Part shown: positions 6,854 to 64,000 of the stretch, in pieces
Layout: each line of letters starts with the position of its first letter
Position numbering within the stretch: the stretch's first letter is position 1
DNA from: Octopus sinensis
Lineage: Eukaryota
Length of the DNA stretch: 64,000 bases
Direction: 5' to 3'
NCBI RefSeq assembly: GCF_006345805.1
Contig: NC_043017.1
Location: forward strand, 24,676,001 to 24,740,000
Notes under the pieces: generated by a model
What the model saw: the letters and a program-made list of their open reading frames with translations, nothing else
What the model was told of the DNA's origin: nothing
Database searches by the model: none
Translations under genes and position numbers: made by a program

Positions 6854-7156
<303 letters not shown>

Positions 7157-21219: not shown

Positions 21220-21250
<31 letters not shown>

Positions 21251-21256
<6 letters not shown>

Positions 21257-21600: not shown

Positions 21601-21606
21601 TATATA

Positions 21607-21990
21607 TCTCTCTCTATATAAACGGCAGTTTGTCTGTGCGTTTTCTGTGTGTCTGTTTTCTCGTACCCTCACTCTGACCACGGCTTTCAACCGATTCTGA
21701 TGAAACTTGACACACACATAGCCCAATGTCATAATTCAAAACTAACGCAGCGAAAATTTTGAAAAGTTCCCCCAGTTCTGAAAAAAATCGATAAATTCGA
21801 CATGGGGTCGAGAATCAGAAACCCAAACCACAGACCGTCTAGGGGACGCAACTCCACCTTTTTTAACTCTCAAAAAAAATTTACCATAATTTTTTTTCCA
21901 TTTTTTTGCTATTTTGGGGCTATAACTCTCTAAAAATGCTTTATAGTTATTTCCCTTACAAACCTGAGCAACGCCGGGCGATACTGCTAG
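21607..21990 (+). mobile_element. Non-autonomous Helitron
   Basis: A|TCTCTCTCTATATAAACGGC 5' end; 3' GC hairpin cctgagcaacgccggg followed by CTAG|T; AT insertion site with no TSD. Confidence 0.8.
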
Positions 21991-22069
21991 TATATATATA
22001 TAAATATTAAATTTCTAAATATCTCATAGAGATATGTACGGTGGTATATATATATATATATATATGTAT

Positions 22070-22705: not shown

Positions 22706-23539
22706 ATATATATATTTGTGTGTGTTTGTGTTTGACCCTCTACCATCACATGATAGCCAATGTTGGTGTGTTTACGTCCCCATAGCATAACAGTTTGGCA
22801 AAAGATACTGATAGAATAAGTCCTGGGGTTGATTTGTTTGACTAAAGGTGGTGCTCCAGCATAGCCACAGTCAAATGACTGAAACAAGTAGAAAATAAAA
22901 TAATAAAAGAATATACATTATAAATATATTGAAAAAAAGATATATAGGTCAACTATATATAGAGAAATAGATATGTAGGTCAACTTACAAATTATAAAAT
23001 GAAGTCATAAAAAGAGTTAAGAGTCTATAAGTTTGGGTGTTACTAATCCAGTTAATAATCTTACAACCGTTTCTGGGGGTCTGGTTGTCCAGTTATAAAA
23101 AAGATATTTACTTCCATTTTTGGACACTGCCTCCTTCATCAGGGAAAATTAATTTCTGAAAAGGCTCACATGTACTGCGTTTTCCTAATGGGAATTACCT
23201 GCTGGATGTTCTTAGATGGCTATATGCAAAAGACCAGGGACACTTCCACTCCCTAGCTTTCAGGGTATTGCAAAAGGTCAAGTTCTTTTATTGGACTTAT
23301 AAGAACTGAAGGACCGCTGCAATAAGTGTGTGGCTCCAGGAAGAGAATATGTTGAATAAAATCATAATTTACCGATACTCTTGCATTTTCTTTTACGCAA
23401 AGCCAGGAACTTTTCAGCTCTCCTTTGTACACCACCTTTGAATAAATTTTGAAAATAATGAAGAATTTAGTAAAATAAATAAATATATCGTTATTAATCT
23501 GATGTTTGGAACATAAATTTTGATGAATGGTTTTAACTT

Positions 23540-23842
23540 TTACGGATTCCATGGACAGCGAGGCTCACCAATGGAGAAGTTCTTAAGCAGATCAGGCCGA
23601 AAATGTCGCTAGAAGCTAGGATCACCAAGAATAGATTGGCATATTTCGGTCATATTATGCGGAGAAAATCCCTGGAGAAGAACATCATGCTCGGAATGGT
23701 CAGTGGCAAGAGAGGAAGAGGCCGACCAAGAACCCGCTGGCTTGATACCATCAAGAGTGATACCGGATAGACCTGAGTGGAGGACACTGATCCATCGAGT
23801 AACCGAGAGTCGACTTCGACTGAGCGGATAGATTGATAGATA
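23540..23842 (+). mobile_element. RTE-clade LINE 3' fragment with TSD
   Basis: Same sequence as 20530-20884 in opposite orientation (RIPWTARLTNGEVLKQ...YFGHIMRRKSLEKNIMLG); (GATA)-like tail; TSD ggttttaactt at 23529-23539 and 23843-23853. Confidence 0.9.
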
Positions 23843-41200: not shown

Positions 41201-44200
41201 TTGCTTAATGCTTTCTTTCTCTTAGAGAGAGAGAGTGGGACAGCACTTAGTTTTTGCAAATCGCTAATTCTTGAAAGAAATATAGCTATGTATCGTATCA
41301 ACTGACTACTACTACCGCCGTTCAGTAGGAAAACAAAGCTCCTGGCAAATCGAGTCTGCAATTCAAACTCAAAGCCAGCTATTTCATTTATCTATCTCAT
41401 ATTGTCCGATGGCAATTCCTCCCTAAATGGTTTTGTGCTAGTCAAATGGAATGCATCAGAAATAGGTGGTAGGGTGAGTTTTGGTTCTAGTACTCTATAT
41501 GTATGCATATATATATCTATACATGTATGTATATAGATATAGATATTGTCTACTTTCCTTCAAGTTGTCCATGTATTTACATATGCATTTTTGAAATTCA
41601 TTTCGATTTGCATAGATACCTCTAGGTAGCTGCATGATTTGTTGGATTGCTTGACAATGCTTCGGTCCTGCAATCGGATTCTACTTGCAGTTGACTTGGC
41701 TTTTTTTCATCTATTTCTGTGGATTGGGTCAAAATAAAATAATGGGATTCAATTTTACTACCATCTCATTGAGAGAAAGGACAAGAACTTGATCCTGTAA
41801 TAAGTTCTATCCATTTATGATTGGATTATAATAGCCTAGTGGGTTCTACAGAACAAACTACTTCATCTTTGAAGGATTTGCACTTTTTTTTTTTACTTAA
41901 GATAATTGAATTTTTTTTTTTTTTTAAAGCAATTTCTGATTTAAAAAATGTATACTTCTGCATTAAATGTATATATAACCATATATATGGTAATATATAT
42001 ATACGTATATATATATAGCTCTATATATATACACACAATTTTTTTTTTCTTTGAAAGCTCTAAAACGTTAACCAGATGTGAAGAAGCAGGGAGGTATTTT
42101 TTTTCAATAAACATATATATTAAATATATAATATATATATAATGTTTTACATATATATATATATTATATATGTATATATACAAACACTCATAAACAGTAT
42201 TTGTCTTTTGTTTAATATCTATGCCTAATATTTGTTATTGTTTTCTTTTTGCTTTTTTTTTTTTTTCATAGACTTTCTATGTACATTTTTACCTGCTGAT
42301 TCCAGTTTTTTATTGAGCCCCTATTTACAAGAAAGTGGGAGGTAATTTTTTATTTTTTTTTTTTTTTAATTGTTTACCTGCTCAAATAATTTACTCTTAC
42401 ATATATATAAATATATATGTATATATAAAAAAAAAAAATTAATATGACTTCAGAATCTAAAATTACAGTTGGCTTTCCTTTTATTTTTCCCTCCCAACAA
42501 TCATCTTGGTATCTTTGCAACAGGGAAGTGTCGAGAGATGGTTATTAGTCTTCGGATAATAATAATATCAGCTTTTCTTTTTCTCTCTGTAAAGGCTGAA
42601 TGCAATCACCACTACATAAAGTGTGCACAATTTTCTTTTAAAGTGGTTCTGCATTATTGTGTTGGTATGTTTGCTCCACAATGTAAATTATTCTCCTCCA
42701 TGACTTATAGCTGTACATAGGAAAATTATATTTCCTTTCAATTCCCATCGCCGCCCTCCCACCCACTAATTTATTGGCACTTCACTGTTGCTTATTTTGC
42801 ATGAATTTTCTTTGAACAAGTTGAGTGAGCATGTTGACCTGTCTTGTCTTATATAGAATTGGGTGAAAATATCAATGTCAAAACTTATTCCATCTGACTG
42901 TTTTGTACGTCATAATTTTAAGATTTGAAATGAAAACTCTTTAAATGAAGTTACTCAAATAAACCATAGAATGCATTTTCAAATTTGAGTTTGCATGCTG
43001 TTTTAGGGAGAAAGTCATAGAAACTGATTCTGAAGTTATATTTTTATAGCTTAACCGAAACCTTTATTTTTTTTTATTATTTTTTTTTTTTAAATCTCTG
43101 CTACCTTGATAAGCTTTTTGTGTGGATGTAGATCTCTGAAGTTGCAATTTTTTTCTTGTATTTTTTTTTTCTTTGCTCTTGAAACATATGATCACTTTTT
43201 TTTTATTTCTTAGTTTAGGTGTTTGCATTTCCAGATGACTAGGTATTATATAGATACATATATATATTTTATATTTCGAGTAATCTGTTTAGAAACACTT
43301 TATATATTCATCTTCCTGCATAAATTACTAGATGTTTATATGCCAATACTTATCGCATTGCTGAAAAAAAATGCAATGGCAGAGTTTCAGGATTTACCAT
43401 TGTTTGTCATAGAGGAAGATTTATGATAAACTTTAAATTATTTAAAATAGTCATTGAATAGACGTGGGTTCAAGCCCCACAGATTCCTTACATTTTCATA
43501 CTGTCATGAGTGACTTTTTGTATTAGCACGTTTCACTTTAATAATGTAACTTGTTTTACATAAATTTATTCCTTTTTACTGGTTTATTCTTATCTATTAA
43601 AAGAAGAAAAATTAATTTGCTTCAATGATGTAAATTAATTTGGAATGCATTTTAAAATTTTCCAAAAATTTTTAGTTTATTTTTATCTCCCACCCATCAT
43701 GTATTGATGATTGTTAGCATTTGCGATCTACAGTATTTAAAAATAAATCCATGATTTTGTGCCTCTGTCCGATATTTGTTCTATATGATATTTTAATTTT
43801 GAAAAAAGAATTTTTTTTAATATGAATTTCCTTAAATCTGTATTGCGAATATCTTGTGATATCACGTTTACTTTTCGGATAAAACTAATAAAAGTTTCGT
43901 TATTCGTTTTTAAAAAAAAAAAATTTCACTATAAAATTGAAGAAAACTGCAGCAGTGTTCTCCATGATCTATTCATTGAATACTCTGTATGCTGGGCTTC
44001 AAGGTTGGGGTGGGGGAAAGAAAATTTTTTTAAATGTATGTGCTGAGGAGGGTTTGAAAAAAAACACAAAAATATGAAATTAGCGTATAATTAAATGGTT
44101 GAAATGTAAATGTTAAATTTAGGACAATTCTTTGGACTAATCATTTTTTTTTTTATTCCTAAATATTTATCAAACATAATTGCAAATCTTACATTTCTGT

Positions 44201-44875
44201 ATTGTTCTTGAGAGAATTCAATTTGATTAACATTACAATTCTGTTGCTGCTGCTGCTACTGATTCAAAAAAATTTTTTTTATTCCTAATATTTACAATAA
44301 ACGTTTTAAATTTCCTTGGGTTTGTAATGGAGTTAATAATACGGAAGATATTTGGGGAAATATAATTATATTAAATTTTGATGCCGATTGTTTTCGTTGT
44401 TTGTTGTTGCTGTTGTTTGTTGTTGATTAAACTTTCTCTTCAAGCATGAAGTATAAATGATATTCCTTGGTTAAAAATATTATTTATACTTAAAATTCCA
44501 ATTTAATGTTGAAGGGAAATTAAATATTGTATATATGTAAGGAATTTTACAAGTGTTAGAATTGTTCTTGTGTTTGAATCTGGATTTGTGATGACACTTC
44601 TGATATGTTTTTAGTCCTTTCAAAAACTACTTTACATTTCAACAATTTAATACTAGATGCAGGCTTGTGGACTTCCTCTTATCTCTACCTTTCTGTACGC
44701 ACTATCTATAAGGAACCATGCTGTATTTGATCGGTACTCGTATATGGAGAACACTGAAGCAATATTTTATTGAGAACTTTTTTTTTTTTCCTACTGTCTA
44801 TATGTTTTTTTTTTTTAATTTTCCCAGGAATCCTCTGATATAATTTTTTTTTTTTTTTTTTTTATCTTCTCCCCA

Positions 44876-44908
44876 ATGGAGGAACATACATATTACCTGG
44901 AAGTTTGA
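44876..44908 (+). promoter_or_regulatory. uORF (MEEHTYYLEV*) in the leader of gene A
   Basis: ATG at 44876 in caATGG context; TGA ends 22 nt before the main ATG; out of frame; preceded by T20 (44844-44863). Confidence 0.5.
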
Positions 44909-44930
44909 CTGACTGCGATACATTTTCAAG

Positions 44931-45857
44931 ATGGAGATGGACAACAAGCGTACCAACCTGATAATTAATTACATCCCACAAACTCTTACTGATGAAGAGT
45001 TTCGTTCTATGTTTTTAAGCATAGGTCCCATCAAATCTGCTAAAATAGTCAGAGACAAAGCCACTGGCTATAGCTATGGTTTTGGTTTTGTTGATTATGA
45101 GAATGTAGAAGATGCTCAGAGAGCAATGCAAACATTGAATGGACTTCAGATGCAGAATAAAACCATTAAAGTTGCTTTAGCAAGGCCTGGTGGTGAGGAG
45201 ATCAAAGGGGCTAATTTATATGTTAGAAATCTTCCTAGACATTACCAGCAGATGGACTTGGAACGTCTTTTTCAGCAATTTGGAACAATAATACAGTCGA
45301 GAGTTTTGACAGACCAGGCGACTGGTGTGTCAAAGGGTGTTGGTTTTGTTCTTTTTGATCAGAAGAAGCAAGCTGAGGAAGCGATAAACCAAATAACTGG
45401 CACAGTTCCTGCTGGTGGTACAGAAGCTCTACTTATTAAATTTGCTGATGACAATGCAAAGAAGGTACGTCCCCCTGCAATGCCCTACATCAATACTGCT
45501 CCATGCTTCCCAGCACCTGGTCCAATGAGAAGTCCTGGCAATAGATTCCGTTATAATCCAGTGACAGGCAATTACTCAACACCTAACTCTGGTTTGAGCC
45601 TCTCTCAGGGAGGATATGTTATTTTTGTATACAACATTGGAGCCAGTTCTTGTGAAAAAACCTTGTGGCAATTATTTTCTCCCTTTGGAACAGTCCAGAA
45701 AGTCAACATCATGAGGGATCATCAAAAGGGACAATCTAAAAATTATGGTTTTGTTACAATGACCAATCTTCAAGAGGCTCAGAATGCAATTGCACGACTT
45801 AATGGCTATGATTATGCTGGTTGTGGTCGACCTCTGCAAGTGAAGTTCAAGAACTAG
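44931..45857 (+). CDS. elav: ELAV/Hu/Sex-lethal family RNA-binding protein, 3 RRMs (copy A; elav2/Sxl-like), CDS in a single exon
   Basis: 308 aa; RRM1 TNLIINYIPQ..GYSYGFGFVDY, RRM2 ANLYVRNLP..KGVGFVLF, hinge GPMR..RFRYNP, RRM3 IFVYNI..LWQLFSPFG..YGFVTMTN..LQVKFK. Confidence 0.95.
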   Translation: MEMDNKRTNLIINYIPQTLTDEEFRSMFLSIGPIKSAKIVRDKATGYSYGFGFVDYENVEDAQRAMQTLNGLQMQNKTIKVALARPGGEEIKGANLYVRNLPRHYQQMDLERLFQQFGTIIQSRVLTDQATGVSKGVGFVLFDQKKQAEEAINQITGTVPAGGTEALLIKFADDNAKKVRPPAMPYINTAPCFPAPGPMRSPGNRFRYNPVTGNYSTPNSGLSLSQGGYVIFVYNIGASSCEKTLWQLFSPFGTVQKVNIMRDHQKGQSKNYGFVTMTNLQEAQNAIARLNGYDYAGCGRPLQVKFKN

Positions 45858-48800
45858 TGATTTCTAGGAAATTCCCCTTATTTTTAAAATAACATTTTTT
45901 TCTGTAAATCCCTCCCATTACATTTTTTTTTTATTAATCATTAAATTTTCATGCTGAAGGACATACATTATAGGTTTTAAAAAAGCCATGAAATAAAATG
46001 TTATGGTGTATCCTGGGATTTCCCCCTTCCCTTTCCTTCCTCTCATCTCCCATTTATTTTTTTTTCTCATGAGTTTTTTTTTTCTCCACCTCTCACATTT
46101 TTTTTTTCTATTTCCATAATAAACCCTTGTCATTGCAAAAAAAAAAAAGAAAGAAAAGAAAAAAAAAAACAAACTCCAGTCAACATTGACTGGAGATTTA
46201 GTTTACAATTTATTGCTATTTACTGTAAACCAAATAGGTTTTACTTGTTGAAACATTTTATCAAAAATACATTATGTATCTTAGAAAACATAAATCGCTT
46301 TTAGCGAAGTATTTTTTTTGTTTGTCTTAATTTTCTCTCTGTCTATCAGAATTAGCTATGAAAATGTTATCACTGAGCACACTCAAAACAATCTTACTGC
46401 ACATGAAAGCTGTCACTTGTCTTGATTTAAGCTAATATCCTCATCATCCCGGTATGCCTTTTTTTTTTTTAAATTTCATAAGGTCCTAATAGCTTTAATA
46501 TGCAGTAACAATATTTACTGTTTTTGAGTTGTTCAATTGTTTGCTTAGGGTTGTGTGAGTGTTTATATTTGTGTTTGCCTGTGTGAAGTTTGTGTACGAG
46601 ACGTTTTTTTTTTTTCCAAATACTTGTGTAAGATTTTTAAATATTTCAAAGAATAACTGAATTGTTGAAAAATAAACTTCCATGCTTAGTTTAATTTTTA
46701 ATAATTTTGGTTAAGAGTTGTTATATATTTATATATTATGTAATATATATTTAAAATTCACTTGACTAAAACTTTACAAAATTTCTCATTAAATGCTTGC
46801 TAGGTAGTGCATCAGTAAGTTTTTAATTTTTACAACTAAAGATAACAGCTGCTGGCTTTATATTTGGTGATTAGTTAGGAATTATTTCTAACCAGACACA
46901 CGATAGTGTTAAAGATATATTAGCCATAGGATTTATTTAAGAAAAAAAAATTGGGTAATGTAATTTTAATTGAAAGAATTTCCATTTTATGTTGAAAGAA
47001 ATAGCTCTGGGAAACTGTTACATTTAAAATGCTGTTCTGTGAGCAACCTATCCATCGAGTAAAGTCATTTGGGAGGGAAATAAGCTTCCATCGACCAGGA
47101 ATGCCAGTTTCTGTTTCCAGTTTTTTTTTTTTACCATTAACGAGATGAATGAAGACATAAAATATTCCAATGAAGATTCCAATTTATCCACCAAGATCTT
47201 CCTGTAATTGTCTGGAAGACTCGATTAGTTTTGAAATAAAGAACTATGTTTATTTCTGTGCAGGTAGGTTCAACTTTCTTCTATCCCTTCCTTCAGATAG
47301 AGATAAATAGGTTGGATTTGGTGAATTCTTGGGATAATTTATAAAAGGTCTTTTAATAGCTGACTTCTCTGAAAGCAAAAGCATTTGGCTGGTATTCTGA
47401 TTAATTTGAAGTTTTAAAAATAAAAATAATGGGTCTTTTTTTTTTAAAGGCAAAAAGTTGTCACTATTTGCTTGTGTGTGTTAAGTGTCTTGCTTCAGGT
47501 AAAATTGATTTTTCCTGTTTTGTATTGTCAAATATTCAGAAATAATCTTATAAAAGGTGAAGTTTTAAAGCTTTGGATTGTGACTGTGGATATTGATTTA
47601 GATAAAAAAATACTGGTCTTTTTTGCTTGAGAGAATAACAAACAAAAAAGTGTGATTTTTATCAAGTTCTTGTTGGCTGTTTCTCGCTACTTATATTTTA
47701 AAATTATTCTTTAATGGTTTTGGTGTATGTCTTTTTCATTTCTCATGTTAAGAAAAATGTCGTTTAAATTTAATTTGGTTTCAAAATTTTAACTTCGACG
47801 TGTAAAAGGCCAGTCAGAACCTTGTTGACTAGAAATATTGACAGGAAGTGATGACGGCATCTTTAGTGTCACAGTTGGTTTACAATGTATATAGTACTGG
47901 TATATCATCCGAATTGATTTCATTTACTCTCAGCTACTAACTTGTCAATAATTGAATTCTTAAAATCTAGTTGGTATCATGAATATTGTATTATGCAAGT
48001 AACTTAAAATTAATTTGGACTGTTTTTAGGCAATTGAAGATAATTCTAGATTAAAACAGCTTTCATGTTAAAACTTTTGTAATATCAAAAGGTTTGCTTT
48101 TTTTTTTCTTTATATTTTTTTTTTTTAGCGAGTGGGTGAGATTACCAATAAACATTATATTGTTTAACAACTTAGCTATTTTTTTTCTCCCCCCTTTCTA
48201 TTGAAAAAAGTAATTTTTGTTATGTGATTAGTTTTAAAACCTTCCAGCTTTCAAGAAGTCCTTTAATAAAGGTCTTGCTAATTACTAATCCATGGTAATT
48301 AGTGTTTAAAAAGTAACAAGATTCTTAGAACAAATCAAAAAGAGTTATGACGATAGGGTTTAAAGGGTTTTTTTTTTAAATGACTTTTTAGAAAAATATT
48401 TAGGTTTTATTTTTGCTTTAATTCCCAATTTTAAATTAATCTCAGATAAAATTCCAAAACATTTTTACTTGTGGCTCAAACAAACCTTCATGTTTTGTCA
48501 TGATTATCATATGCTATCTAAGAGTTAGTTTAGATGTTTTTTTTTCCCCCTCATCACATTTTGAGGTTTTAAATATCTGTAAATCTGCACCCATGTTTAT
48601 CTTACAAAAAAAAAAAAACCAAAATAACCCCAGGTATTTAACTTAATCCTGTAGACTTTAAATCCTATTTGTGAGTGACTGGCCTCTCCCCATTTGGATA
48701 ATAACAGGTGTCATTTCAGATGCTTAATAAAAATGTTAACTAAATAGAGTTGATTTTTCTCACAAACATTTTTATATTTTGATAAAGGACTAGAAGTGTG

Positions 48801-49420
48801 AGGAAAGTGCATAACCTAGAGAGTAAAATGATAAAAATTTCTTCTAAGTTGCAGATACTGTACGTTACCAAAGACCCATTATTTTATTTTTTTATCTTTT
48901 TTCTTCTATAACTTCATGATTTGTCAATCCTCTCCACCTATTTTTCTATCCTTCCACACCCCTATACCTGAATTTTATTTCCCGCCCTGTCCCCCCAAAA
49001 AATGCTAACTTAGTTGACCATGGAACCCCAGTGTACTTCATACCAACTGCTGTGCTTTGTTACTGCTTTTGCCTACCCACGACTGACTGTTCAGGAGGCT
49101 TGTTGCATTTTATAGATTGGTTAGTTATTTCAATTAAGCTACTGTTCCTTCCTGGTCCCACATGGACAAAAAAAAAAAAAGCCCTCATATCATGGTAGCT
49201 ATCTGGAGTATTTCAAACCCTTTTTACTTTATTGTTGCCAAATTGTTTTTCTTAAAGTTACATTTGTAACATTTTCATTTAATTGAAGATAACTTTAAAT
49301 ATTAATTTTTAATAAAAAAAAACTTAAACATTTTTACATCGATTGCAATAAATGAATGTTTGAGATTTGGACATACACTTAACTGTACGACTGACAATCG
49401 CAACCACTTTTACATTTCAG

Positions 49421-50020
49421 GGTTACGGAAGAACCAGAGGACCACATGGTGTTTACCATTCTCATCAGAGATAAAAGTCTTAATCATGGTCTGGGTGGGT
49501 AAACAATATTAGTATAATTCTTCCAAGCTGATAAGTGTTTTCATTTAATTTGGTTTCAGAGTGCTAAATATATTTAGCATTGTAATCTTTTTGAACTAAA
49601 AATATTCTCTCTGTTTCAGGGGGATAACATAAAATTTGGATTTTCTTTTTATTAATGGTAAGTTAATACTTTTTGAAAATTACCTTAATTTAACTCGTTA
49701 TGTATTTTCCTTTATTAAGTCAATGTTACTTACATTTTTTCTTTTTTTAAATATATATTTTTCAGGATTAATTTCATTTCAAATTTGATGTTTAAAGATA
49801 ACCAAAGAAAATATCGTAGACCAAAGAGATGAGATGTAACCAAAGAGATGAGAAATCTTATTGAATATAATCAGCAAAGAAGTTTTTTCGTTTTTTTTTT
49901 TTTAATACATTTTAATGCATTTATGGTCAAATTATTTTCATACCTCTCAAAACATGAGATTCCATTTTAATTTTGCAATCTCTGGTTGACATTAGAAAAT
50001 AAAGTAAGCACCATTTTGAT
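49421..50020 (+). other. Candidate spliced non-coding exons (49421-~49498, 49620-49657, 49766-~50020)
   Basis: Three tttcag|G acceptors (49420, 49619, 49765), donors gg|gtaaac (49499) and atg|gtaagt (49658), and AATAAA at 49998-50003; no ORF. Confidence 0.5.
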
Positions 50021-51295
50021 TTGTGCTATTTGAAAGTTTAATGGGTTTTCACTTATTAATTCACTTGTTTTATATTCTGAAGGCATGCTTCAGCACGGAG
50101 AGCTAACCCAGAGACTTCACATTTGAAGAGCTAATTTTGAATTTGAGTTACAGATTCCAGTTTCAACTTTATCAAAACCTGGTTTATTCTTACATTTAGA
50201 TATATACACACGCATATATATATATATCAGATGAGGTGAAGGAACACACCAAGTCAGCTTGAGTCAATATATTTATTGTACCAAGACAGTTCTTTATAAG
50301 ATTCTTCAAATGATTTCAGGAACTGAAATGGAGAAGAAAAAGAGGGGAAGGGAAATATATAATTCAAAGTCATGATTGCCTTAGCAATGTGGTGAGGGGG
50401 AGGGAGGAGAGAAGCACTGGAGCAAAACAATTTTTGTGGCAGCATTACAGCCAGCAGAATTTATTTATTAGAAAATATTACAAGGAATGATCTGAGATGT
50501 TTTTGTTGTTTTTGTTTTTTTATTCATACATTCATGAAGACACCTAACATAATTGAATAATGAATAGTGGACCAGTCAAACCAATATTTTCTGCCTTAAT
50601 ATGGACATTTGCAAGAATGCTTGCGTTCTTACTAAAAAGAGAGAGAGAGAGAGAGACAGGAAGGGGAGAAAAAAAGGTTTTGGGAGGAAAACGTATAAAA
50701 ATAAATTTAAAAATTCAATAAATTAAAAACAAAAAGGGGAGGTGAAATGAAATTACATTAGGGGTGCTATTTTTTTTTTTCTTTTTTTGTCAAACTGCTG
50801 CGTTTGTGTATTGAAGCCACAAAACATGCTAATCCCTTAGTATCAGTTTTTGTTTTTGCTTTTTTTTTTTTTAAACACACATCTATCAATACAAGATGTT
50901 ACCATTTTAAGTTCTTTTGAAAATAAGTCAAGGTAACTATAAAGAAATAATCATAATAAAAGAAAATGCAACAACTATTGTATTGCCACTAATTAGCTTA
51001 AGAACAATATGTAATAATAATAAAGTTAAAAGAAAGGGAAGCTGCCATTTCTTAAAATTACTGATAACTTTGTAACCTTTGGGAGAGGGAAGGGGAGGAG
51101 AAATCACCTCCAAAGTGATACAGAGTTGGTAGCAGCTTCGATTGCCACTTTTGCTTTTTAAATTCCACAGTAAAGAAGCCGAAAAGTAAATTAATAGTAA
51201 AACAAAATAAGAGTATAGATATTTTTAACTAAAAAAGTAAAAAATAAAAAAAGAAGGGGGGTAAATGAAAATAACCCATATAAGACTCAAGTAAA

Positions 51296-52252
51296 TTATT
51301 TGTTTTTAAAAGAGACTTGGAGGGGTCCCCAACCGCGATAGCGGTATCCATTGAGCCTGCCGACAGCATTTTCTGCTTCGTGTTGGTTAGCCATCGTGAC
51401 AAAGCCATAACCTTTTGTCTTCTGATGTACACGCACAATGTTGGCCTTTTGCACAGTACCAAAGCCGCAGAAAAGCTGGCCCAGGTCAGATTCATCCATA
51501 TTGCCAGTGTTGTAGATGAACAACACTGGACTGTTAGACATGTCATTATTTGGGTTAGGGTTGGGGTTGTTAGGAGAGTAATTGACAGGCACCGGACTTG
51601 TAAATCGTTCATTACGCATGAGCATAGGCGTGGAGAAAGTTTGTTGTATGCTGTTATTATTGTTCATGTATTGTTCATGTGGAGGGCGAGTTTTTTTAGA
51701 ATTGGGAGCTTCATTAGCAAATTTTACTATTATTGGCTCACTACCACCTGGAGGTATAGTTTGATTCAAGTCAGCAATGGCAGCTTCTGCCATTTTTTTC
51801 TGATCATACAAAACAAAGCCTACTCCCTTAGATTGGTTAGTGTTTGGATGAGTCATTATTCTGGAACGGATGATAATACCATAAGGTTCAAAGAGCTTAA
51901 CAAGGTCGCTCTGAGCATAATGATTTGGTAAATGGCTCACATAAACATTGGCCCCCTTCACCCCAAGACCACTGGGCCTAGCGAGCGCCACTTTGATTCT
52001 TTTGTTCTCAATATGAAGTCCATTTAAAGTTTGAACTGCTCTTGCAGCATCTTCTGGGTGTTCGTAATCTACAAATCCAAATCCGTAGCTGTATCCTGTT
52101 GCCCTGTCTTGAATTATTTTTGATGACTTAATTGGACCAATAGTCAGGAACATGGCTCGGAATTCTTCATTGGAAAGACTTTGTGGGATATAATTCACTA
52201 TTAAGTTGGTTAGATTCCCACCATTATCTTCACAGTGATCTTCTGTTGCCAT
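51296..52252 (-). CDS. elav: ELAV/Hu/Sex-lethal family RNA-binding protein, 3 RRMs (copy B, diverged paralog), CDS in a single exon
   Basis: 318-aa intact ORF colinear with copy A (TNLIVNYIPQ, GYSYGFGFVDY, KVALARP, KGVGFVLY, KGYGFVTM, LQVSFK); Kozak GCCATGG; acceptor ttttctag| at 52324/52323. Confidence 0.92.
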   Translation of the reverse strand: MATEDHCEDNGGNLTNLIVNYIPQSLSNEEFRAMFLTIGPIKSSKIIQDRATGYSYGFGFVDYEHPEDAARAVQTLNGLHIENKRIKVALARPSGLGVKGANVYVSHLPNHYAQSDLVKLFEPYGIIIRSRIMTHPNTNQSKGVGFVLYDQKKMAEAAIADLNQTIPPGGSEPIIVKFANEAPNSKKTRPPHEQYMNNNNSIQQTFSTPMLMRNERFTSPVPVNYSPNNPNPNPNNDMSNSPVLFIYNTGNMDESDLGQLFCGFGTVQKANIVRVHQKTKGYGFVTMANQHEAENAVGRLNGYRYRGWGPLQVSFKNK

Positions 52253-52260
52253 GGCAACAG
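52243..52260. promoter_or_regulatory. 18-bp perfect palindrome containing RFX X-box consensus GTTGCCATGGCAAC
   Basis: CTGTTGCCATGGCAACAG centred on gene B's start codon. Function is unproven. Confidence 0.45.
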
Positions 52261-53181
52261 TCCCTTGTCTGTCATAACAGCTCCAACACAGTGATTGCTA
52301 ACAGTTGCACAGGGCTTTTCTCCCTAGAAAAGTAAAAAAAGAAAAAGGTTAATTGGAAACTGGAATATATCCAATCACAGATTAAAAAAAACAAAACAAA
52401 ACAAACATATACACTTCGTTGACGTAGGTAATTATTTTTCACAGTTGCAATAAAAACCATGTTTTCATCTGTGTAGTTCAATACTCTACTGATGTAACTG
52501 CATAAGTTCCAGAAGCAATGTCAAGACATTAATACTGATTTCTTTTTTAAAATACATTTACAAACTATGTAAGAATTTGTGAAAATAGACATCAAGTAAA
52601 TCCTATCAGAAAACTCATTAGGAGAGGATGGGTGTTTAATTTTGAATCCGGTTCTAATGGTAATTGTATGTATGTATAAAGGAGTTCTAAGTCAGACAAG
52701 CTAATAATATACGGTCAAGAGAGTGAATATTAGGGATTCTTTTTATTTTTGCTTGGGTTTCAAGTTCAATTCTAATAAAAAGATTTATTGGATCCTTTAA
52801 TTATCACTTACGTGGAAATACACAACTGCTTTTGTTCTAGTCCATTCTGAAACTTCGGTAGAATTTAGTAAAATAACTTATAAGTAAGTATTTGGAATGT
52901 AAATTGACACAAAACATTAATGAAAGTTTTTAATCTAGAACAGCTGAAGACAGCTTGTAACGAAAGTGGGGTCAATATACAAAACTTGATTATAAAAGCA
53001 ATTGAATCCAAGATAAAGATACAGTTGAAGCCATCCACATCTATTGCCACGAAGTCTATAGAAACCCAAGATGAGGACTGGAGCAAATATTTTCATAAGG
53101 TACTGATCAGTAATATCAGCCACATTTTAAGATGCAAGGGAATCCTGGTGAACTGTTCACTCACAAGCCCAGAATTCACCA

Positions 53182-53337
53182 GGCTACAGGTATGGATTTG
53201 GATTTGTTGATTACAAACACCCAGAAGATGCAGTTAGAGCAGTTCAAACTTTAAATGGACTTCATACTAAGAGAAAAAGAATCTTGCTAGGCCCAGTGAA
53301 GAGGGCCAATGTTTATGTGGGCCACTTACCAAATCAT
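53182..53337 (+). pseudogene. Inverted partial duplicate of gene B (RRM1 RNP1 to RRM2 RNP2), copy C
   Basis: Translates GYRYGFGFVDYKHPEDAVRAVQTLNGLHTKRKRI..KRANVYVGHLPNH; 90/102 nt match B codons 53-86 by manual alignment; two internal deletions (10 and 11 nt). Confidence 0.9.
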
Positions 53338-56256
53338 ATAGACCAGAAAATGAGCATATGGACATATTTCTGCTATAAATGAGACATGTCAAAGACCTAG
53401 ACTACAAAACAGATTGCTGTACTCTGGATAAGATGAGAGAAAATAGTTCAAGGCAGGACATTCTAAAGCTGGTTTTTTAAATATTTACAGATATCAAGTG
53501 TTCATTTTTAGTAATTCATGCTTAATCCATTAGCATTTAAACTGACCATATCCAGCCAAAATATTCTACTTGTACAAACCAACTGGATTTGGCCTCTCAA
53601 ACCTACCCTACAATGTCATTATAAAAATGATCACATCATTGAAATAGCGAAGCTATACATAATTCAAACCAACAAGTATGACATTTGACACTAAACTGAA
53701 TGTATCTACTAGCAAGAGTAAGATAACTATATACAAGTGATGACAAAAAAAGAAATAGCAACCGCCTACTTAGCAGCAGCTTAATAATTTTAATGAATTA
53801 ACAGCAAATTTACGTCAGGTTAATAAGAAAACAGCAGCAATAACTTATTTCTGAAAGAGGATAAAGAAAATTATCATTGCTGATAGTAGAACAGAATGAT
53901 TATAAAGATGTAAATAAATAAAATAGCTTTGATAGTGTTTTTTGTGCTACTGACCAACTTAATTTCTTGGTCATTCACCATGGAATGAAATAACTGCCTT
54001 CTGGCCCTATAATTATCAATGGTGCCGATTAGTACTTGTTGATCCACATACAGTTCAGATATTTCAAAATGGATTTTTTCTTTTTGCTTGAAACAAAAAT
54101 GCTTGGATTGGACTGTTAATCTCTACTGACAAAACACTAGATGATTTTTAACATATGAATTTTCCCTGTATTTTGATATTTTACAACAGGACGCTCCTTC
54201 CTTAAATCAACAATTTTGTAAAATGAGACTTTTGTCAGATTTTACAAACAAACAATGCAAAACTTTCATAATTCTTAGAAATTTTACTTGGAGCAAGAAA
54301 GAATTGCCTGGCTATTATTAGCAACTATCAAAGAACAGGGGAGATAATTTCAGGTAATTAATTTCTCAGTTAATTTGCATGTGGTCTCTCTCAGGAGGAA
54401 GAGGAGAATTTGGCAGGTTTTCGTCATCTTGACTACATCAATGTAATTTACTCTCTTCTAGTTGAGCCTGATGATAAAATCAAAGTAGATTTTCACACAG
54501 AAAGCCAGTCGATGGCTTGAATTTGCATAATTCTTTTCTACTCTAGGCACAAGGCCCAAAATTGGGGAGGGGAGACAGTCAATTAAATCGACCCCAGTAT
54601 GCAACTAGTACATACGAAATACGGCTAAGCACCTTGGCATGCTCACTGCCTTTTGAATTTGCATAATTAAGTTAAAGAGTGACATAATGCTGTTACTTAA
54701 TTGAAATTTCTTGGACGAAGAAACTCAGAACGGGCAGTTAACAGCAACTCTTGATATTTGGTTTCCACTAAATTTTCAACAATCAAATCATATAAAAGTT
54801 ATTTCAGAAACTCTGAAATAGAATCAAATACCAATGACAATACACGAGCGAATGAAACAAAAGAAAATGTCTTTACCAGACATATTCAGTGATACTATCA
54901 ATGAAATATTAGTCAAAAGTCAAACATTACAGGTGATGATGTTTAATGCTTTAGCATTTAAACCACCTTAATATTCTACCTGTTTTATGTTCAAACTAAC
55001 CAGATCCAGTCTCTCACCCCTATCCAGTAATGTCATTCTAAAAATAAACAATCACATCTTCAAAACCTCAAAGCTACGAGATAATACAGGATCAATTTTA
55101 TAAAATAGGAACATATAAGTATAACATGTACAAAGGGTTAAATCCAGCCCTATGAATAATGGTATTCAAACTACCTTTGTTGTTCTCTCCTAAGTTTTAG
55201 GGGCTGATTTGACTATTTCTAGCCACATTTCTGATTTGCTCAACTTGAATAATACAACACAAAAAATCATACAATGGTTCATTGCCACAATAACTATAAG
55301 AAAGTGTATTCATCTCTTATAAAGAAGGGAACATACTCAAACAAAATGAGACTGTTCTCAACATTGATTGAACATTTACTTTCCAACAGTCAGATGCCCT
55401 GATCAATAAATAGTCAAGACATGCTTTTGAAAAGGAATGGAAACAAAACAGTATGGATTGAGGCTCTCTTATTTACAGTCAGTGCATGTACAGAGTATGA
55501 CGATGGACTTCAGTGTCTGTCTATCAATTTTACTCACAAAATATCGGTCAGAAACAGTGGCTATGTTGAGGGACTGAACCCCTAACCACACGATACCAAA
55601 GCAACTTCTTAAATATGCAGCCATGCTTGCTATACTAACAAAATCTTTCCACGTGTCTTAGTTAAAAAAAAACTCCATTTAACATTAAGAATGTTTTCAG
55701 GAAATAGTTAGCCGAACCTGACAGTACGTCTTTCATAAAGCTATACTTAGGGAATATTCAGTCAACTAATACTGATAGAGGGATTCTGTGGTTTCAGGTA
55801 GTGGAGCTGTATCACTTTACAATATAACCTAATGGACACAAGTGATGAAATAAAAGTTGTAGACACCTTGCAAATTCCAGCTTGAGATATGATAAGAACA
55901 TATCACTTGCAATGAATTATCATAGAAAAATGAGACAAGGTGCACTGCTGCTACATGCACAATATATCCAAGAGTATATTTAAAAGACCTGACAATAGAA
56001 ACTGTCACTTTGAGCTAGAAAGCTACATTATCAACTCTTCCCTCAACTCAACAAAATACACTGATATAGTTTCTTTTTTTCTTCTTACTCTCTTCTTACA
56101 CGTTTCACAATCGATATTCTCCCAAGCTGCAACCCTCTAGAGTTCTCTCCCTTTCTACACAAACTGATTATATGTAAGGTCACCAACTTGGGAAGATATT
56201 TAATTTTGCTCATTGCTATACTAACAAAATCTTTCCATGTGTCATATTCTTGATGC

Positions 56257-56622
56257 TTTCTTTCAGTCATTAGACTACGGTCATGCTGGGGCACCACCTT
56301 GAAGAGTTTGTAGTTGAATGAATCGACCCCAGTACCAATTTTTATTTTTTCTCCTCCTCAAGTTTGTTACCTATTCTATTGGACTCTTGCAAACTACCAA
56401 GATGTGGTGGTCGTGGTGGGGCATAGACACAAAGGCATACACATGCACACACACACACATAAAAGTTTTCTTCCAGTTTCCATCTACCAAATCCACACAC
56501 GAGGTATTGGTCGGCCAAAGGCTACAGTAGAGGACACTTCCCGAAGGTGCCATGCAGAGAGAGACTGAACCCAGAATCATGTGGTTGGGAAGCAAGCTTC
56601 TTACCACACAGCCACGCCTGCA
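56257..56622 (-). mobile_element. tRNA-derived SINE family 1
   Basis: Diverged full-length copy. Confidence 0.8.
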
Positions 56623-57121
56623 TCTCTATATCATGAATCAGTGTTTATCTCTATAGTTTTACTGAGAGAACAATAAATAAGCTATGACGTCAGTCCTTTA
56701 CAGCTGGTACCAGGGAAGAAAAAAAAAATTACACTGCTGTTGCCTGTAGTAACAAATCAACACTAGCCAACAATATCTAAGTGAATCGCATGATCTTTCA
56801 AGTTGGTTATCATGATTACTTATAAATCCAACAAACAATTGGCTCTGCATAAGAAGGCTAAAATCCAGTTCAAAAAGATAATTTTAACAATCAGCAAAAC
56901 CACCTATTCTTTTTTTAAAAAAATCACATCCCAAATGACAAGAGGAGCATCATCAAATGCAAACAAGGAATTGGAGGTCTATGAGGATATAAAAAAATAT
57001 CTTTATAAAATAGGTATTGTATCTGATGGCCTATAAGATGCACGAGAGCATAGGGTGTACCCTAGCCTAGGTTATACTTTTGCAAAATATATTACCACTA
57101 AAATAATGTTTTAATTCCTCC

Positions 57122-57330
57122 ACTTACCTGTATAACTTTATATTATTACCAGTAATTATAAGCAATTTATTGCATCCACATTCGATATAAACACACCGTA
57201 GGCGATTGTTCACCAATAGACGGTAGCATATGTTTTGTAAACATACCGTTTTGAGCCTGCACTGAGTGCATTGGACGCAAGGAGATTTTATGGGTAAAAA
57301 ACTTGTGTTTTGTCGGCCATCGAATACGGT
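57122..57330 (-). promoter_or_regulatory. Candidate first exon/promoter of gene B
   Basis: Consensus minus-strand donor CAG|GTAAGT (57128/57127) at the edge of a CpG-retaining unique patch with CCAAT (57213) and ATTGG (57270). The assignment is inferred. Confidence 0.35.
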
Positions 57331-58532
57331 ATCTTTTAGTACCTGTTGATTTGGTGTAAGTACAAATGGTAGATTTAATCTTTCAGCATTCAGACTGCTC
57401 TGTCAAATGTAATGCTTATTTATTCACATTGTTTTGAATTAATCATGCAGTATGTTGTGGCTTCTAGATCTTAATGATGTAATTGTTTAATTTTTTGACT
57501 GACATTGTAGGGAAGGAGTGAGAGGTCGGACCTGGCCAGTTTGAACTTAAAACAAGTAGAATATTTGGGCCAGATATGGTTGGTTTAAATGCTAAACGGT
57601 CAAGTCATTTTAGATAAATGCTTGAAGATAAACTTTAACATGGTGTTGCTTCCTGGCTCCTCTCCACGTGCAGTAGGTTGTTACACAACAGGAGTTCAAC
57701 CGGCAGCGAATGGCTGGGATTTTTTATGGTTGGATGCCCTTTCCGTCACAAAGCAAGGTAATGTTGCTTCTAGTCCATTGCACGTCACTGCTAACATGCA
57801 CCATAGGTCTACCATATATTAAAACATACACACCAGGATTTATTATTCAAGAAAGTAACCATTTCATGTCCTAGTGAATTCGTTCCAACTTTAGCAGTTG
57901 AAAATACAAATACTCCAAAATTATTGTAGGTTACAAGTCACTGTATGCTACAACATCTATCACAGACTATCATTCAATTATATTTTGACCATAAAGCATA
58001 GAACAGAAATTATTTGATCTTTTATGGTAGAATTGTCACGACAAACCAGCAGGATCTTCACCTTAACATCACTCAACCAAAAATCAATTACACAACTCAG
58101 TTCCTCCAAAACTGAAGGCAGGACACTTAATGTTACTTGTTCCTCTTAGCACCTGAATGACAAGAGGTCCCAATCTTAGTAACAATTAAAATGTGAACCA
58201 AACAACCTTGCACGAGAAACGACATACTGTGGTGAGCTGCAGAAATTATATCTTCACGAAAAAGCCATATAGAAAGCAATACATCAACAATACTAACAGA
58301 AATATTACAGACTTCGCTGTGTGGTTAAACATCTTGATTCCCAACCTTGCGGTCCTGTGGTCAGTCCTACAGCACGGAACCTTGGGCAAGTGTCATCTAT
58401 AGTCTCAGCCTGACGAAATCCTTAGGAGTGGACTTAGTGAACGGAAACTGAAAGAAGCCCGTCGTGTGTGTGTCTTTGTGGCACTTAAGGTGGGTGCCTT
58501 CTACTGTAGCCTTGTGAGTGGATTTAGTAGAC

Positions 58533-58693
58533 AAACTGAAAGAAGCCCATATGTATAGTTACTGTCTCCTTGCCATGACACTACGAGTGTAACCGTCATG
58601 CAAAAAACGTGTCCTTCGTTTTCTGCATGACGGTTACACTCGTAGTGTCATGGCAAGGAGACAGTAACTATACATATGGGCTTCTTTCAGTTT
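58533..58693. repeat. Perfect 70-bp inverted repeat (fold-back) inside SINE sequence
   Basis: 58533-58602 is the exact reverse complement of 58624-58693, followed inward by one mismatch, 6 more bp and a 7-nt loop. Confidence 0.93.
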
Positions 58694-60276
58694 TCAATAT
58701 TGTCTGAGCATGAGGAAATATTACCTTACTTGGACACAAGGGCTGGCAACAGGGAGGGCATTAGACTGTACAAAAATCAATAAATTCTGTACGACCCATG
58801 CAAGCGTGGTAAAGTGGAAGCTGAAACGACGATACACATACACGTGCCGACCGAGCGTGCACCTTGGTCTAGACATCACGTGATGCTTGTAAATAAACAT
58901 CATCGTGAGGCAAGCGAGATTAATTTAGTCTTCATGCCCAGTTACTGAAAAACATTACGTTGCTTGGAAACAGGTGAGGGTTGGCGACACAAAGGGTATC
59001 TGTCTCAAAAAATTCCGCCTGACCCTTGCCGGCGTGGAAAAAAAAAAAAAAAAAGACATTACATGATAGTGACATCCGATAAGGTAATCATCATTTCACG
59101 GTCAATTTATTAATAACAATTGACCACTTACAGGACATACACCAAAATCCAAGCCAAATGCTAAGTGAAATAGTATTTTTTTTACACACATACAAATCCT
59201 TGAAACTATACAGAATTGACATTACAAGCAGTTCCATGCAATCACGACTTTTCTTGCCGGATTTTAAACTATAAAAGCATTTATGTACTAGAAAAAAAAA
59301 AAAAAAATCATAAATGCTCGACAGCCATTGACCTTTTCTATCCGAAGCGGTTTTTTCTTTAGACCCAATATTTTCATGCTTATTATCCATGACTTCATTT
59401 GCTTCAGATTCACAGTTTAAAAAAAAAAACAACAAAAAACTACTAAGAATAATGAATGTTTGTTTATTTATTTTCAATCTAGTTATCTCGAATTAAAAAC
59501 AATGACTCGCTGCAACTTTCTAATTAGAGATTAATCACTACACGGCCTTTGATTAAAATTATGTGACATATGGCACTGCAAAAACAATAACAAATTCTCT
59601 AAACTGCTTTTAAGTTAAAATGTTGCGAGATTTAATGTTTAAAAAAAAAAACTTAGGAAGTTGTCGGTGAAGGGGGGCAAATATGTTATAATAGGAAAAT
59701 GAAAAAATACAAAAAAACATTTCGGTAACGGTTTGTTAGCTAAACCCCTGTGGGCCTTGTATTATGTTACACGTTTTAGGAGGGAAAAAAAATACAGGGA
59801 GCGGGATGAAAGAAAAGCAAGCGCGAACGAATCTATACAACCAGCAGTTAGTTACAAGATCGTTGAATATACATACACACACACACACATCTATGTGAAC
59901 ACATTATACATATATATGTATGTATATACATATGTGCTTTACTCATAAGCGTAGAGCAATCTCGATGATCTCTGTGAAGATCGCCGACTGTCATCATCAT
60001 CATAAACGTGACGATGGGTGACTAACTAATCACAATATTTAACGAAAAGAGTCCTAAAGATTTCAATTTTTACAAATCTCGAAGGCATCGAAAGACGAAA
60101 GGGGAAGGAGATAGACTGGCGCACGCGCATACAAGGCACACACACGAGAGGTTGGTTGCAAATATGAAAAGGGACTTGCGAAAACGTGTTCGAGTCTGCT
60201 ATAGCTTGTTTGTTTGTTTGATATTTCAGAAATGGATTTGTAAAATAACTATTTCTAATAGAGGTACGGCACAGGG

Positions 60277-60620
60277 CCAGCAAATTTTATGGGGAAGCGG
60301 GTTTCGTCGATGCCATTAACCCCCCCCCCATCTTCTCCATGGTAACATTTTAACGACTCCCGAAGGGATGAAAGGCAAGTCAACTTCGGCAGGATTTGAA
60401 CACAGAGCGTCAAGAGCCGGAACAAAGCCGCAAAGCACCCCACCACCACAAAGCTCCATTAAGTCTGACAATAATTCTATCCATTATAGGCACAAAGCCT
60501 GAAATTTTTTTATGCGGAGGGGATAGGATAGTTGATTGCATCGACACCGAAAGAGAGAGACCAAGTCAATCTCGGTCATAGTATTTGAACCCAGAACGAA
60601 TGCCGCTAAGTATTTTTTTC
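60277..60620 (-). mobile_element. Two degenerate SINE family 2 copies
   Basis: ggatgaaaggcaagtcaacttcggcaggatttgaac and a second, more decayed copy. Confidence 0.65.
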
Positions 60621-61100
60621 CACCGAAGGCTCTAACAAGTCTCACAATAATATCCAAAGCAAGAAAGAGTGGCGGAGATAAAATATACGTACACCACCCG
60701 TTTTTCGGCCCGACAAAAACCCTACCCGGGAAGAGTTTTGTTGAAAAGCCAAATTCCACTTTTAAATAAACAGTATAATTACCCCCCCCCCATGTTTAGT
60801 TATATATACCGGTGCCCCAGCATGGCCGCGGCCTTCGGGCTAAAACATTTTTAAGGATTTATACCTGTATACACTATCGTGCGTACATTCATTTCCTATC
60901 ATCACATTTTACAACAAATCTGTGTAATTGCTCATTCATTCGACAAAAGGCATCAATATGTAAAAAGAGAACTATCTTCTTTTTTAATCTAACAGCGTTA
61001 CTCCCTAAAAAAGCGATTATAAAGTTTCGGCTTTAAAATAATACCCCACCAAAAAGCTTATTTTTGTTCTCGAAGTACTAACGTGCAGTCACCCTTATTC

Positions 61101-61131
<31 letters not shown>

Positions 61132-61400
61132 GTACATACACACGCGTGCGTACATGATGTCTAGATAGAAGAGGCCTGAGAATAAGGTAAGGACACTGAC
61201 TGCTCGCAGGAAACTTGGTAAAAAAAATAAAAAAACGTTAGACTATATAAAGCCGCACTGAGTAAGCACAGTATTAAGTACATTTAAGGTGCCACATTGC
61301 GCTGAGAGAAGAGTTGAAATTCAAAATAATTTGTTTAAAAATGGGATCTATATCTCTATCGATCAAACTTCAGTATGTGACATCGATGATATATATATAT

Positions 61401-61457
61401 ATATATAGGCAATCTTTCGTCTCTAGGTCTACTAGAGACGAAAGATCGCCTATATAT
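61401..61457. repeat. 57-nt hairpin in a TA microsatellite
   Basis: atatataggcaatctttcgtctctag-gtcta-ctagagacgaaagatcgcctatatat; 26-bp arms with one mismatch. Confidence 0.85.
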
Positions 61458-62501
61458 GTATACATACATATTTATAGAACTAATGTATGAATAATTTGTC
61501 TCATAAACGTAAATTATAAATCCTTAACATCAAATTTTAACAGGATAAATAAACACAAAAGGATTTTATACAACTAAGTAAATGATAAAATAAAATAAAG
61601 CTATTTCGATCAACACGTGCACTAACTTACAATTATAAAATAAAAATGACCTTAGGGTATTATTATTAATCATCATCCACTTCTACTACCACCCAATCTC
61701 TAATTTAACATAATTATATAGTCAGCTCTATCACAAACGTATATATATATATATATTGTGTGTATATATATATATAGAGAGAGAGAGAAAGGGGGGCAGG
61801 AGCTTGATATATATACACTCACACACAAACTAATTTAATATATTAGAATATAGCCCGATATATAGAAGGATGACAAGCAATTAAGAGAAAAAATCATCTT
61901 GCAAGTGAAAATAAATAGAAAAGCAGCAAGTGAGAAAATAAGAGAAGACATGAATTTTAGACTTTTTGTTCTGACTGGTTGATACCGGCCGGCATATAAC
62001 ATGAATCCGCCTTTCAATGCCGTCTCCGCTCTCGTCTCTCTCTCTCTGGCTTAACGACTAGATGAGGAATCCATTAGCGAAAAATTGGACATAGAATCAG
62101 TTTCTCATATATATATATATACATATATATAAAGGAGAGAGCAGACATAATGTAACATTTTAAAAACTTAATTTACAAAATGAAATTGGCAAAACGTTTT
62201 AAAATGTGAGAATTTATACACACAAAATGACGTGTGGATGTATGTATGTTATATACGTACGGTACATATAGGCATTACACAACCACATTTTAATGCACGC
62301 ATTTTACACAATGTCGTATATATATATAACGAGCAAATGTGCGTGGATGTATATTGGAGGATCTGTCTAGATTAATTTCATATTCAGATCGCCGACAAAA
62401 TGCTTTGTTAATGGATCAAACAGAAAAGGTGGCTACAATGAAGAAAAGACAAAGGGAGAGACACCAAAATATAATATTATACAATACGTATGCCTCTCTA
62501 A

Positions 62502-62536
<35 letters not shown>

Positions 62537-64000
62537 TATATGTGTGTCCTTACATATGCGTGTATGTAATACGTGAGTTACACAAAGAGAAAGTATGTAA
62601 GAGAAAGAGATATACATTTGCATTACACACACGTGACAGGTAAATTAAGAATCGAGGGACGACGGCATTTCTTTGTTTTAATCTAAATTATGGGAAAATA
62701 AATATTTAATAAATAAAAAAAAAAAGAATATTAAAATTACACGACATTTGGCCCCCCCCAAAACCACAATTTTATCACCACAGGTTTATTTATTTATCAC
62801 TGACTTGGTATTACTTTATGGCACATTTTATTTCTTTTTCTGTCATCGACACAAGAAATGGCAAAGCCAAGTGGACTCCGGCCAGATTTGAACTTAATAA
62901 AACCCCTCCTCATGAGGGACCTAACTTAAAATGTTTGCAAGGAATGATGATGATGATGAACAAGACTAATTAATCTAAAATCCTCATCCATAAGAATACC
63001 CGATTCTGTTACTGGTCTTTTATCCATTTTTGCTAAGCAAAATTTAAAATTCTAGAGATTTTCTTTCAATGTTTCTGTCCTTTCTCTCTTCAACGGAAGA
63101 TGAAACCTGCTGCCATCAAGAATAATAAGTTTCTTTTTCAAAAATGCTGAAGATTTTGGTAGAGTTTTCTTTTTTTGTATCCGATCTAATTTAATTTTAA
63201 TGATTGTTAAACTATGAAGATAGAACATTTCATTATAACCATTAAAATAAATTATATATATATATACATATATAAAATTAAAAGAATTGAAACAAAGCTT
63301 AAAATTATGTAAAATATATAAAAAGAATAAGAATTAGGGGAGAAAAAAACCCCCTTTTTTTGTATTTAAATCCTTTTCTTTCACAGTTGGAAGATTAGGA
63401 ATGATTTATTGTTAAGGAGGAAGAATAGAGAAGAAAGAAATATAACAAAGCTAGGCAATTAGAAAGTATTATGTCTCATATATTATATATATATATTTTA
63501 TGTAGGTAGGCATGATTAATGGTGTGGAATAATAATAAATAAATATTAAATACTAAATAATAAAAAAACGATGCATCTTTTGTTTCTCGCCAAAAAAACT
63601 CGGCTCCCCCCCCTCTGCGTGTCCTCTCCTCCACCCCGCCAAAAAGCCAACAAAAGATGTGCATGTTTGAAAAAAAAGTGTCCATCGAGTGGCTGAGAGA
63701 AAAGGGTTTACATGTCAAACGAAGCACATGGTGGCGAACCAAGTAAGTGAGTGTCGGGGGAAAGAACATGCCACACACACACACACGGGAAAGGAAAAAA
63801 CGGCTGAAAAATTTTCAAACCCCCCTCCGACTTGACGCAAGGGAAAACATGTCAACCGACACTGTAAAGCTACCGAAAGACGAACGAAGCTCTTGCCGAA
63901 CGTTTCGTCTACATTACTGTCACAACTTGCGACACTGTTAAGAGGAAATAATGCGATAAAGGTAACACATTTTCGAAAAGAAAGCAGAAAATCGTACTAA

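Follow-up and report, generated by a model that had tools for sequence, protein, structure and literature searches.

The 161-nt segment at 53177..53337 (plus strand) of the window, by which we mean the whole 64,000-nt stretch of Octopus sinensis DNA analysed here, is best read as an inverted partial copy of the coding sequence of gene B that originated in one local copying error, sits in the 5' intron of that gene and is decaying without selection, an account that we hold with moderate confidence. As an old local inverted duplicate it may draw stray ADAR editing, and it is more likely to be harmless debris than an RNA-editing guide that has been retained.

The copy aligns with gene B 52101-51920 (minus strand), with 144 of 161 aligned bases identical. 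The match is made up of three blocks of 106, 13 and 42 nt (93, 12 and 39 identities, respectively), which in the copy are separated by deletions of 10 and 11 nt relative to B, and there are 17 substitutions in all. A BLAST search within the window gave an E-value of 3e-43 for this pair. An earlier note on this DNA had described the duplicate as 90 identities in 102 nt with a 31-nt perfect run; these counts are exact for 53182-53283 against the reverse complement of 51995-52096, with the run at 53236..53266 (plus strand), and the full match extends to 53177-53337. On the strand of B the copy is antisense to the CDS, and the source arm delimited by the alignment (51920..52101, minus strand) comprises codons 51-111, from RNP1 of the first RRM domain to RNP2 of the second. 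In a genome-wide DNA search with the source arm, the two matches among two candidates were B and the copy, which is thus a single extra one. Since it is only 77% like the paralogous gene A over 83 nt, as against 89% for B, we take B to be its source. Moreover, 0.96-0.99 of the sequence words are present in four runs from two studies (one of which may be the source of the assembly) and one DNA contig of another lineage (organism A) spans the copy, which therefore is not an assembly artefact.

A second small scrap at 53440..53460 (plus strand) matches B 52120-52100 at 18 of 21 positions and beats all 400 shuffles (p = 0.0025). Its source is the B sequence directly 5' of the copied segment, so that it stands out of order. 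As for the surroundings, 52830-52950 is an old dispersed repeat, 52950-53176 is unique, and a 100-codon stop-to-stop frame at 52908-53210 enters the copy in another frame (with a sub-threshold Pfam match to EAD7, E 0.008, and stops in the organism A allele). A whole-gene pseudogene was also considered and rejected, since a collinear alignment of the flanks with B is no better than chance (p 0.25 and 0.05, with 0.99 and 0.59 in anchored tests). Such an inverted copy within 1.5 kb was found at none of the 18 other RRM loci (20 loci were run, of which L003 and L005 are the present locus), and the arrangement is therefore not commonplace. Six loci (L014-L018 and L022, at G000:C9:101.41-101.49 Mb) have intron-split RRM exons that are 43-58% like B and probably belong to the canonical elav gene.

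Gene B itself (51296..52252, minus strand) encodes 318 residues with three RRM domains (PF00076 in each case) in a single coding exon, and its squid orthologue (UZQ18772) is 84% identical. By search, alignment and tree, gene A (44931..45857, plus strand; 308 residues) is its paralogue, with 57% amino acid identity. The two are linked, convergent, cephalopod-specific Elav2/Sxl-like paralogues, each with one coding exon behind an acceptor, and each has a squid orthologue (UZQ18772 and UZQ18773, deposited as 'sex lethal'). That relatives of both are listed with a longest contig of 96,363 bases suggests that the linkage is old. A tree of 37 proteins places A and B together as a cephalopod pair (99/96 support) among mollusc Elav2-like proteins, and in this they resemble lophotrochozoan Elav2; they have three RRMs and group with annelid and mollusc Elav2, apart from Elav1, fne and HuD, with the Elav2 side of the midpoint split at a modest support of 82/69. 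As this tree was built without true insect Sxl, the Sxl-like label is not a statement of orthology. Here, the A/B duplication predates the squid-octopus split, and B, which stands on a long branch (0.93), is long-stemmed yet now strongly conserved. The linked pair may help to sort cephalopod elav orthology, which is left open in the available text of PMC9839350.

A template switch during repair or replication would have copied B 52101-51920 (182 nt) to a site 1.1 kb away in inverted orientation, with the displaced 21-nt scrap at 53440 as a by-product of the same event; that this scrap derives from adjacent B sequence fits such a switch. The combination of a local inverted copy with an out-of-order scrap is like the templated insertions attributed to alternative end joining and template switching in the available parts of PMC2943611 and PMC5120786. 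Unlike in those insertions, the junction microhomologies at the present locus are too decayed to serve as evidence, and the mechanism is one that we infer. His65 is common to the copy and B, while the five aligned relatives of B have Asn, so the copy postdates the octopus-type His65 change. Its own branch carries about 8.8% change. Half the divergence between the present genome and organism A is about one-seventh of this, so the copy would be roughly seven times as old as the split from that lineage.

Afterwards, the copy would have changed like intron DNA, and its mutation pattern is consistent with this. Relative to B, pN is 0.083 (10 of 121 sites) and pS is 0.175 (7 of 40), and the resulting ratio of 0.47 lies close to the 0.5 that a constrained gene should show against a neutral copy of itself; a ratio of 0.1 is rejected (P = 0.002) and one of 1.0 is not (P = 0.16), with all selection tests having little power as they rest on 17 changes. 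Because the 10 transitions are split between five that give G:U pairs and five that give A:C or C:A mismatches (the 7 further changes are transversions), there is no bias towards preserved pairing. The 31-nt perfect run is at chance level for such divergence, the longest run in random placements having a median of 26 and a probability of 0.27 of reaching 31 or more. There are 21 deleted letters, and the ratio of gaps to substitutions in flanking DNA of organism A (153 and 114, respectively, in 7 listed pieces) predicts about 18. The copy is thus truncated and gapped, with nonsynonymous change at the neutral rate, as a non-functional partial duplicate should be. The earlier note had proposed a built-in editing guide, and a selected guide of this kind finds no backing in substitutions and deletions that fit neutral decay, nor in a sister lineage that has probably lost part of the core.

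The evidence for that loss comes from the DNA contig of organism A, which is about 2.5% diverged, covers 52862-53511 and differs there by 22 substitutions and 31 gap letters. Within the arm it has two substitutions, a new one at 53194 that gives a G:U pair and one at 53269, where organism A retains the B-matching base and the copy in the present genome must therefore have changed after the split. The offsets along the contig correspond to 5 inserted letters before 52962 and to 26 deleted letters between 53111 and 53269. Moreover, the RNA-like contig of run X14, which belongs to a different study and shares the allele at 53269, has an alignment that begins at 53259 with 11 letters clipped. From the offsets and the clip taken together, the deletion would end at 53258, inside the perfect run; organism A is thus probably short of as many as 26 nt of the core, and this run is probably broken there. 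With the inferred deletion, the duplex between arm and CDS is still predicted at -188 kcal/mol. The copy in organism A also carries a G57R change.

Conservation had been put forward as a check, and in this one close relative, a comparison of low power, the arm changes at background (2 substitutions seen against 3.4 expected, P = 0.33), with the probable core loss and the 5:5 split of transitions pointing the same way. When the arm is taken together with the next 174 nt, 309 bases align and hold 2 substitutions where 7.8 would be expected (P = 0.015, uncorrected and for one of several segments), which could reflect constraint. The second part of this segment, 53338-53511, has neither substitutions nor gaps in its 174 nt (4.4 expected), and contains the 21-nt scrap and a splice acceptor before 53423. 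Beside the copy, single-copy DNA at 52944-53155 has 20 substitutions (17 of them transitions) and small insertions relative to organism A, about four times background, and no single frame in it renders the 20 changes synonymous. Run X16 is labelled as another organism yet is almost exactly the present genome, and so has no value as an outgroup.

That the copy lies in the 5' intron of B is likely, judging from the CpG profile and from low-depth contigs upstream of the coding exon. The exon begins behind a candidate acceptor whose last intron base is 52324, with 19 of 20 pyrimidines before the TAG, and its 5' UTR part is at 52253..52324 (minus strand), a stretch that also matches, in frame, an N-terminal extension of the squid protein (SCYDR..VAM). 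The earlier note had joined this acceptor to a candidate donor at 57127 (57119..57130, minus strand; 9/9 consensus), thereby enclosing the copy in an intron. Both of these sites are good ones, but donors closer to the acceptor lie at 52811, 53164 and 53329, and further donor-like sites on the minus strand are located at 58729, 59131 and 61630. In invertebrates, CpG-depleted DNA marks methylated gene bodies, and promoters are undepleted. Here, observed/expected CpG is 0.14-0.39 over 52-57 kb, the depletion running from 50 to 57 kb and ending at 59 kb, and rises to 0.94-1.02 over 59001..64000, a stretch that is likely the promoter region of B. This profile suggests that the gene body of B reaches up to about 58 kb, with the promoter beyond. 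Inside its possible first intron we also noticed a near-perfect, repeat-like hairpin at 58533-58693, an inverted duplication (94% over 161 nt, -143 kcal/mol).

B is probably expressed, as six runs classed as RNA by automated guess contain 0.52-0.55 of the sequence words. Four of the 24 listed runs (X5, X9, X14 and X16) aligned to the region as contigs, and the low-depth, RNA-like ones upstream of the acceptor, at 52413-52601 (X9) and 53259-53471 (X14), can be explained by unspliced RNA or by DNA carry-over. The 15 joints listed (there are 1146 more) include none from 52324, whether to 57127 or elsewhere.

Alternatively, the copy would lie upstream of the B start site as inert DNA that forms no hairpin, with transcription entering either through a short first exon that ends at donor 52811 or through an unspliced start near 52600. 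We regard this as unlikely, while giving it real weight. The donor in question (52803..52814, minus strand) agrees with the consensus at 8 of 9 positions, and a first exon starting just above it would leave the copy outside the transcript. Moreover, word shares in four same-species RNA-like runs (0.54-0.55) exceed the 0.478 predicted for the exon alone (P = 0.04) and are best fitted by the exon plus 52413-52601 (0.554), and run X9 is without a contig over the arm (its bin 53122-53467 has depth 0, although an uncovered intron bin is no proof of absence). This has to be set against the long CpG-depleted tract ending at 59 kb, which looks like a gene body followed by a promoter, against the old dispersed repeat at 52830-52950, and against the X14 contig over 53259-53471, which may come from either strand or from DNA carry-over.

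If the copy is intronic, as we favour, the antisense arm would pair with the RRM1-RRM2 codons for as long as the intron stays attached. Since no exon of B follows its coding exon, this intron could survive for a time that allows the pairing. The earlier note had suggested a hairpin over RRM1 RNP1 to RRM2 RNP2, and a fold of 51900-53350 (minus strand) does predict it in both the MFE and the centroid structures; the predicted loop contains the acceptor as well as the start codon. At about -232 kcal/mol (a perfect partner would give -361), it is the strongest of five inverted pairs in 50300-59600, the four others being at -105 to -172 kcal/mol. The core of the duplex is 106 bp with 88% pairing, and it joins the arm to the very exon in which edited sites had been proposed. 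Likewise, the two A:C mismatches named in the earlier note were found at 52005 (N83) and 51937 (S106). The paired segment would expose 58 adenosines rather than two, with editing nonsynonymous at 38 of them, including Y54 and Y56 of RNP1, and for this reason selectivity is not expected. The duplex could thus attract ADAR editing at dispersed sites and low levels, or hold up the splicing of B a little, as a by-product that weakens as the arm decays and not as site-selective recoding. A caveat to this neutral reading is that this duplex, the strongest at the locus, has survived next to a gene with a strongly conserved protein.

A bolder version of events is that we see an editing element at birth: an inverted duplication in the octopus lineage would have given B an intronic partner of its own, through which ADAR recodes or throttles B in neural tissue, and deletions in sister lineages would adjust the duplex; we think this rather improbable. 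Were it true, a single inverted duplication of coding sequence could be enough to create coleoid recoding sites, and the pair of alleles would constitute a natural experiment.

A little less credible again is that the arm dampens B, whether by slowing splicing or export, by giving rise to hairpin siRNAs against B (and weakly against A), or as an antisense 5' UTR exon from 53423 to 53165 that, once the mRNA is mature, would fold back on the CDS. In its favour are the core pairing of 88% over 106 bp, a candidate cryptic exon on the minus strand (53164..53445) that combines donors at 53329 and 53164 with a good acceptor in front of 53423, and the 53338-53511 segment, which is unchanged in organism A. 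An exon with the arm is also compatible with the word shares, if as a weak fit (predicted 0.586, P = 0.12). Conversely, the substitution pattern is neutral, the perfect run has probably suffered its loss in organism A, the one RNA-like contig there (X14) reads across 53423 unspliced, Rfam gave no match in 44000-64000, and the identity of the copy to A is just 77%. Drosophila hpRNAs and mouse oocyte pseudogene endo-siRNAs come from separate transcripts with abundant small RNAs. The present locus is like these in having an inverted duplicate of a gene's own sequence that is able to pair with it, and unlike them in that one arm is the live gene itself.

The proposal that the arm is a selected editing-complementary sequence (ECS) recoding N83S and S106G fares no better, and we judge it improbable. 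Among its strengths are the A:C mismatches at both sites, the abundance of recoding in coleoid neural tissue (as far as the available text of PMC8382921 and PMC9068888 covers it), and a layout shared with BLCAP. In the latter, according to the accessible part of PMC2958456, an ECS in the 5'-UTR intron pairs with the early coding sequence of an intronless CDS in exon 2. B similarly has an intronless CDS, with a likely 5' UTR intron and, upstream, a likely intronic stretch that is predicted to pair with the early CDS, so that both the fold and this precedent support the geometry proposed earlier, though not a selected guide. In contrast, the same part of PMC2958456 describes the BLCAP element as the last 150 nt of its intron, conserved in mammals and with measured, correlated editing, whereas the arm of B lies 850 nt away from the acceptor, can still be recognised as a duplicated piece of the CDS and shows neutral decay. 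Conservation, a hallmark of such elements in that text, is not what the organism A comparison gave.

The sites themselves tell against selection as well. Two A:C pairs among 17 scattered mismatches are unremarkable, N83 is identical in all 16 natural proteins aligned, and the squid orthologue of B keeps the same N83 and S106. ADAR disfavours a 5' G, and the S106 adenosine has one. With so many nonsynonymous adenosines in the paired segment, Y54 and Y56 among them, selectivity would moreover not be expected. The intronic ECSs of the GRIA2 Q/R site and of Drosophila neural genes are deeply conserved elements, short and imperfect, that target a single adenosine or a few. The predicted duplex of B has in common with these an exon-intron pairing with A:C mismatches that would be available before splicing, while differing in being long and young.

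Of the four runs, only X16 has a contig over the relevant part of the B CDS, which is blank in X9 and X14 and without cover at 51738-52083 even in the DNA run X5. The X16 contig at 51849-52008 (depth 3.5) has no differences from the genome, including at the 26 paired-segment adenosines in 51920-52008, and carries the genomic base at 51937 (S106); N83 is 3 nt from its end. Over the arm (53259-53337), the X14 contig shows no A-to-G change on the strand of B at 19 adenosines, only a genomic allele. These RNA contigs, with a depth of 2.4-3.5, unspecified tissue and rare variants dropped, make a weak test of editing. Both members of the two-protein B cluster are unedited, and a search for short B fragments with edited residues gave 2 matches among 6 candidates, the best at 71% and none informative. 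The names elav and sxl are absent from the supplement text of PMC8382921, PMC9068888 and PMC9699675, although site tables published elsewhere may bear on the editing of B, and our literature searches found no paper on this element.

According to the available text of PMC9699675 and PMC9068888, editing in octopus is located mostly in introns and 3' UTRs, the ubiquitous sites often coincide with repeats, and intronic hairpins receive scattered editing. The hairpin of B is like the intron and UTR inverted repeats described there, which are long imperfect hairpins in pre-mRNA, and four other inverted pairs accompany it at the locus. It is unlike them in that one of its arms is coding, and stray editing would alter codons. 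Introns are largely ignored in coleoid editing analyses (as stated in the accessible part of PMC8891338), and the source of the dsRNA structure for coleoid recoding sites is an open question. Here, a datable inverted copy of a CDS, with two alleles in close lineages and a squid orthologue, offers a cheap test of whether a duplex suffices for recoding. With debris the most likely reading, the value of the copy is that of a test case rather than of a discovery.

That the copy is an exon of a separate plus-strand gene or of a third paralogue, encoding a short RRM peptide, is very improbable and largely refuted, for although the two deletions total 21 nt and so preserve the overall frame, and the 76-codon stop-to-stop frame scores as half an RRM (PF00076, E 2e-7), there is no ATG upstream of the RRM part, nonsynonymous change runs at the neutral rate, organism A has G57R and the 26-nt loss, the flanks are not clearly homologous to B, and a protein search with the peptide returned no database relative and no candidate.

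Elsewhere in the window, two long young inverted repeats at 12212-12930 and 20672-23750 (221 nt at 96% and 213 nt at 94%) are probably mobile-element ends, and an exon at 6854-7159 reads, by motif, like what we take to be a PP2A-type phosphatase catalytic subunit. Some 27 kb past the window end, a 444-codon open frame (L025, 7261-8590) is possibly an exon of the next gene, and endonuclease/reverse-transcriptase-like fragments are found near it.
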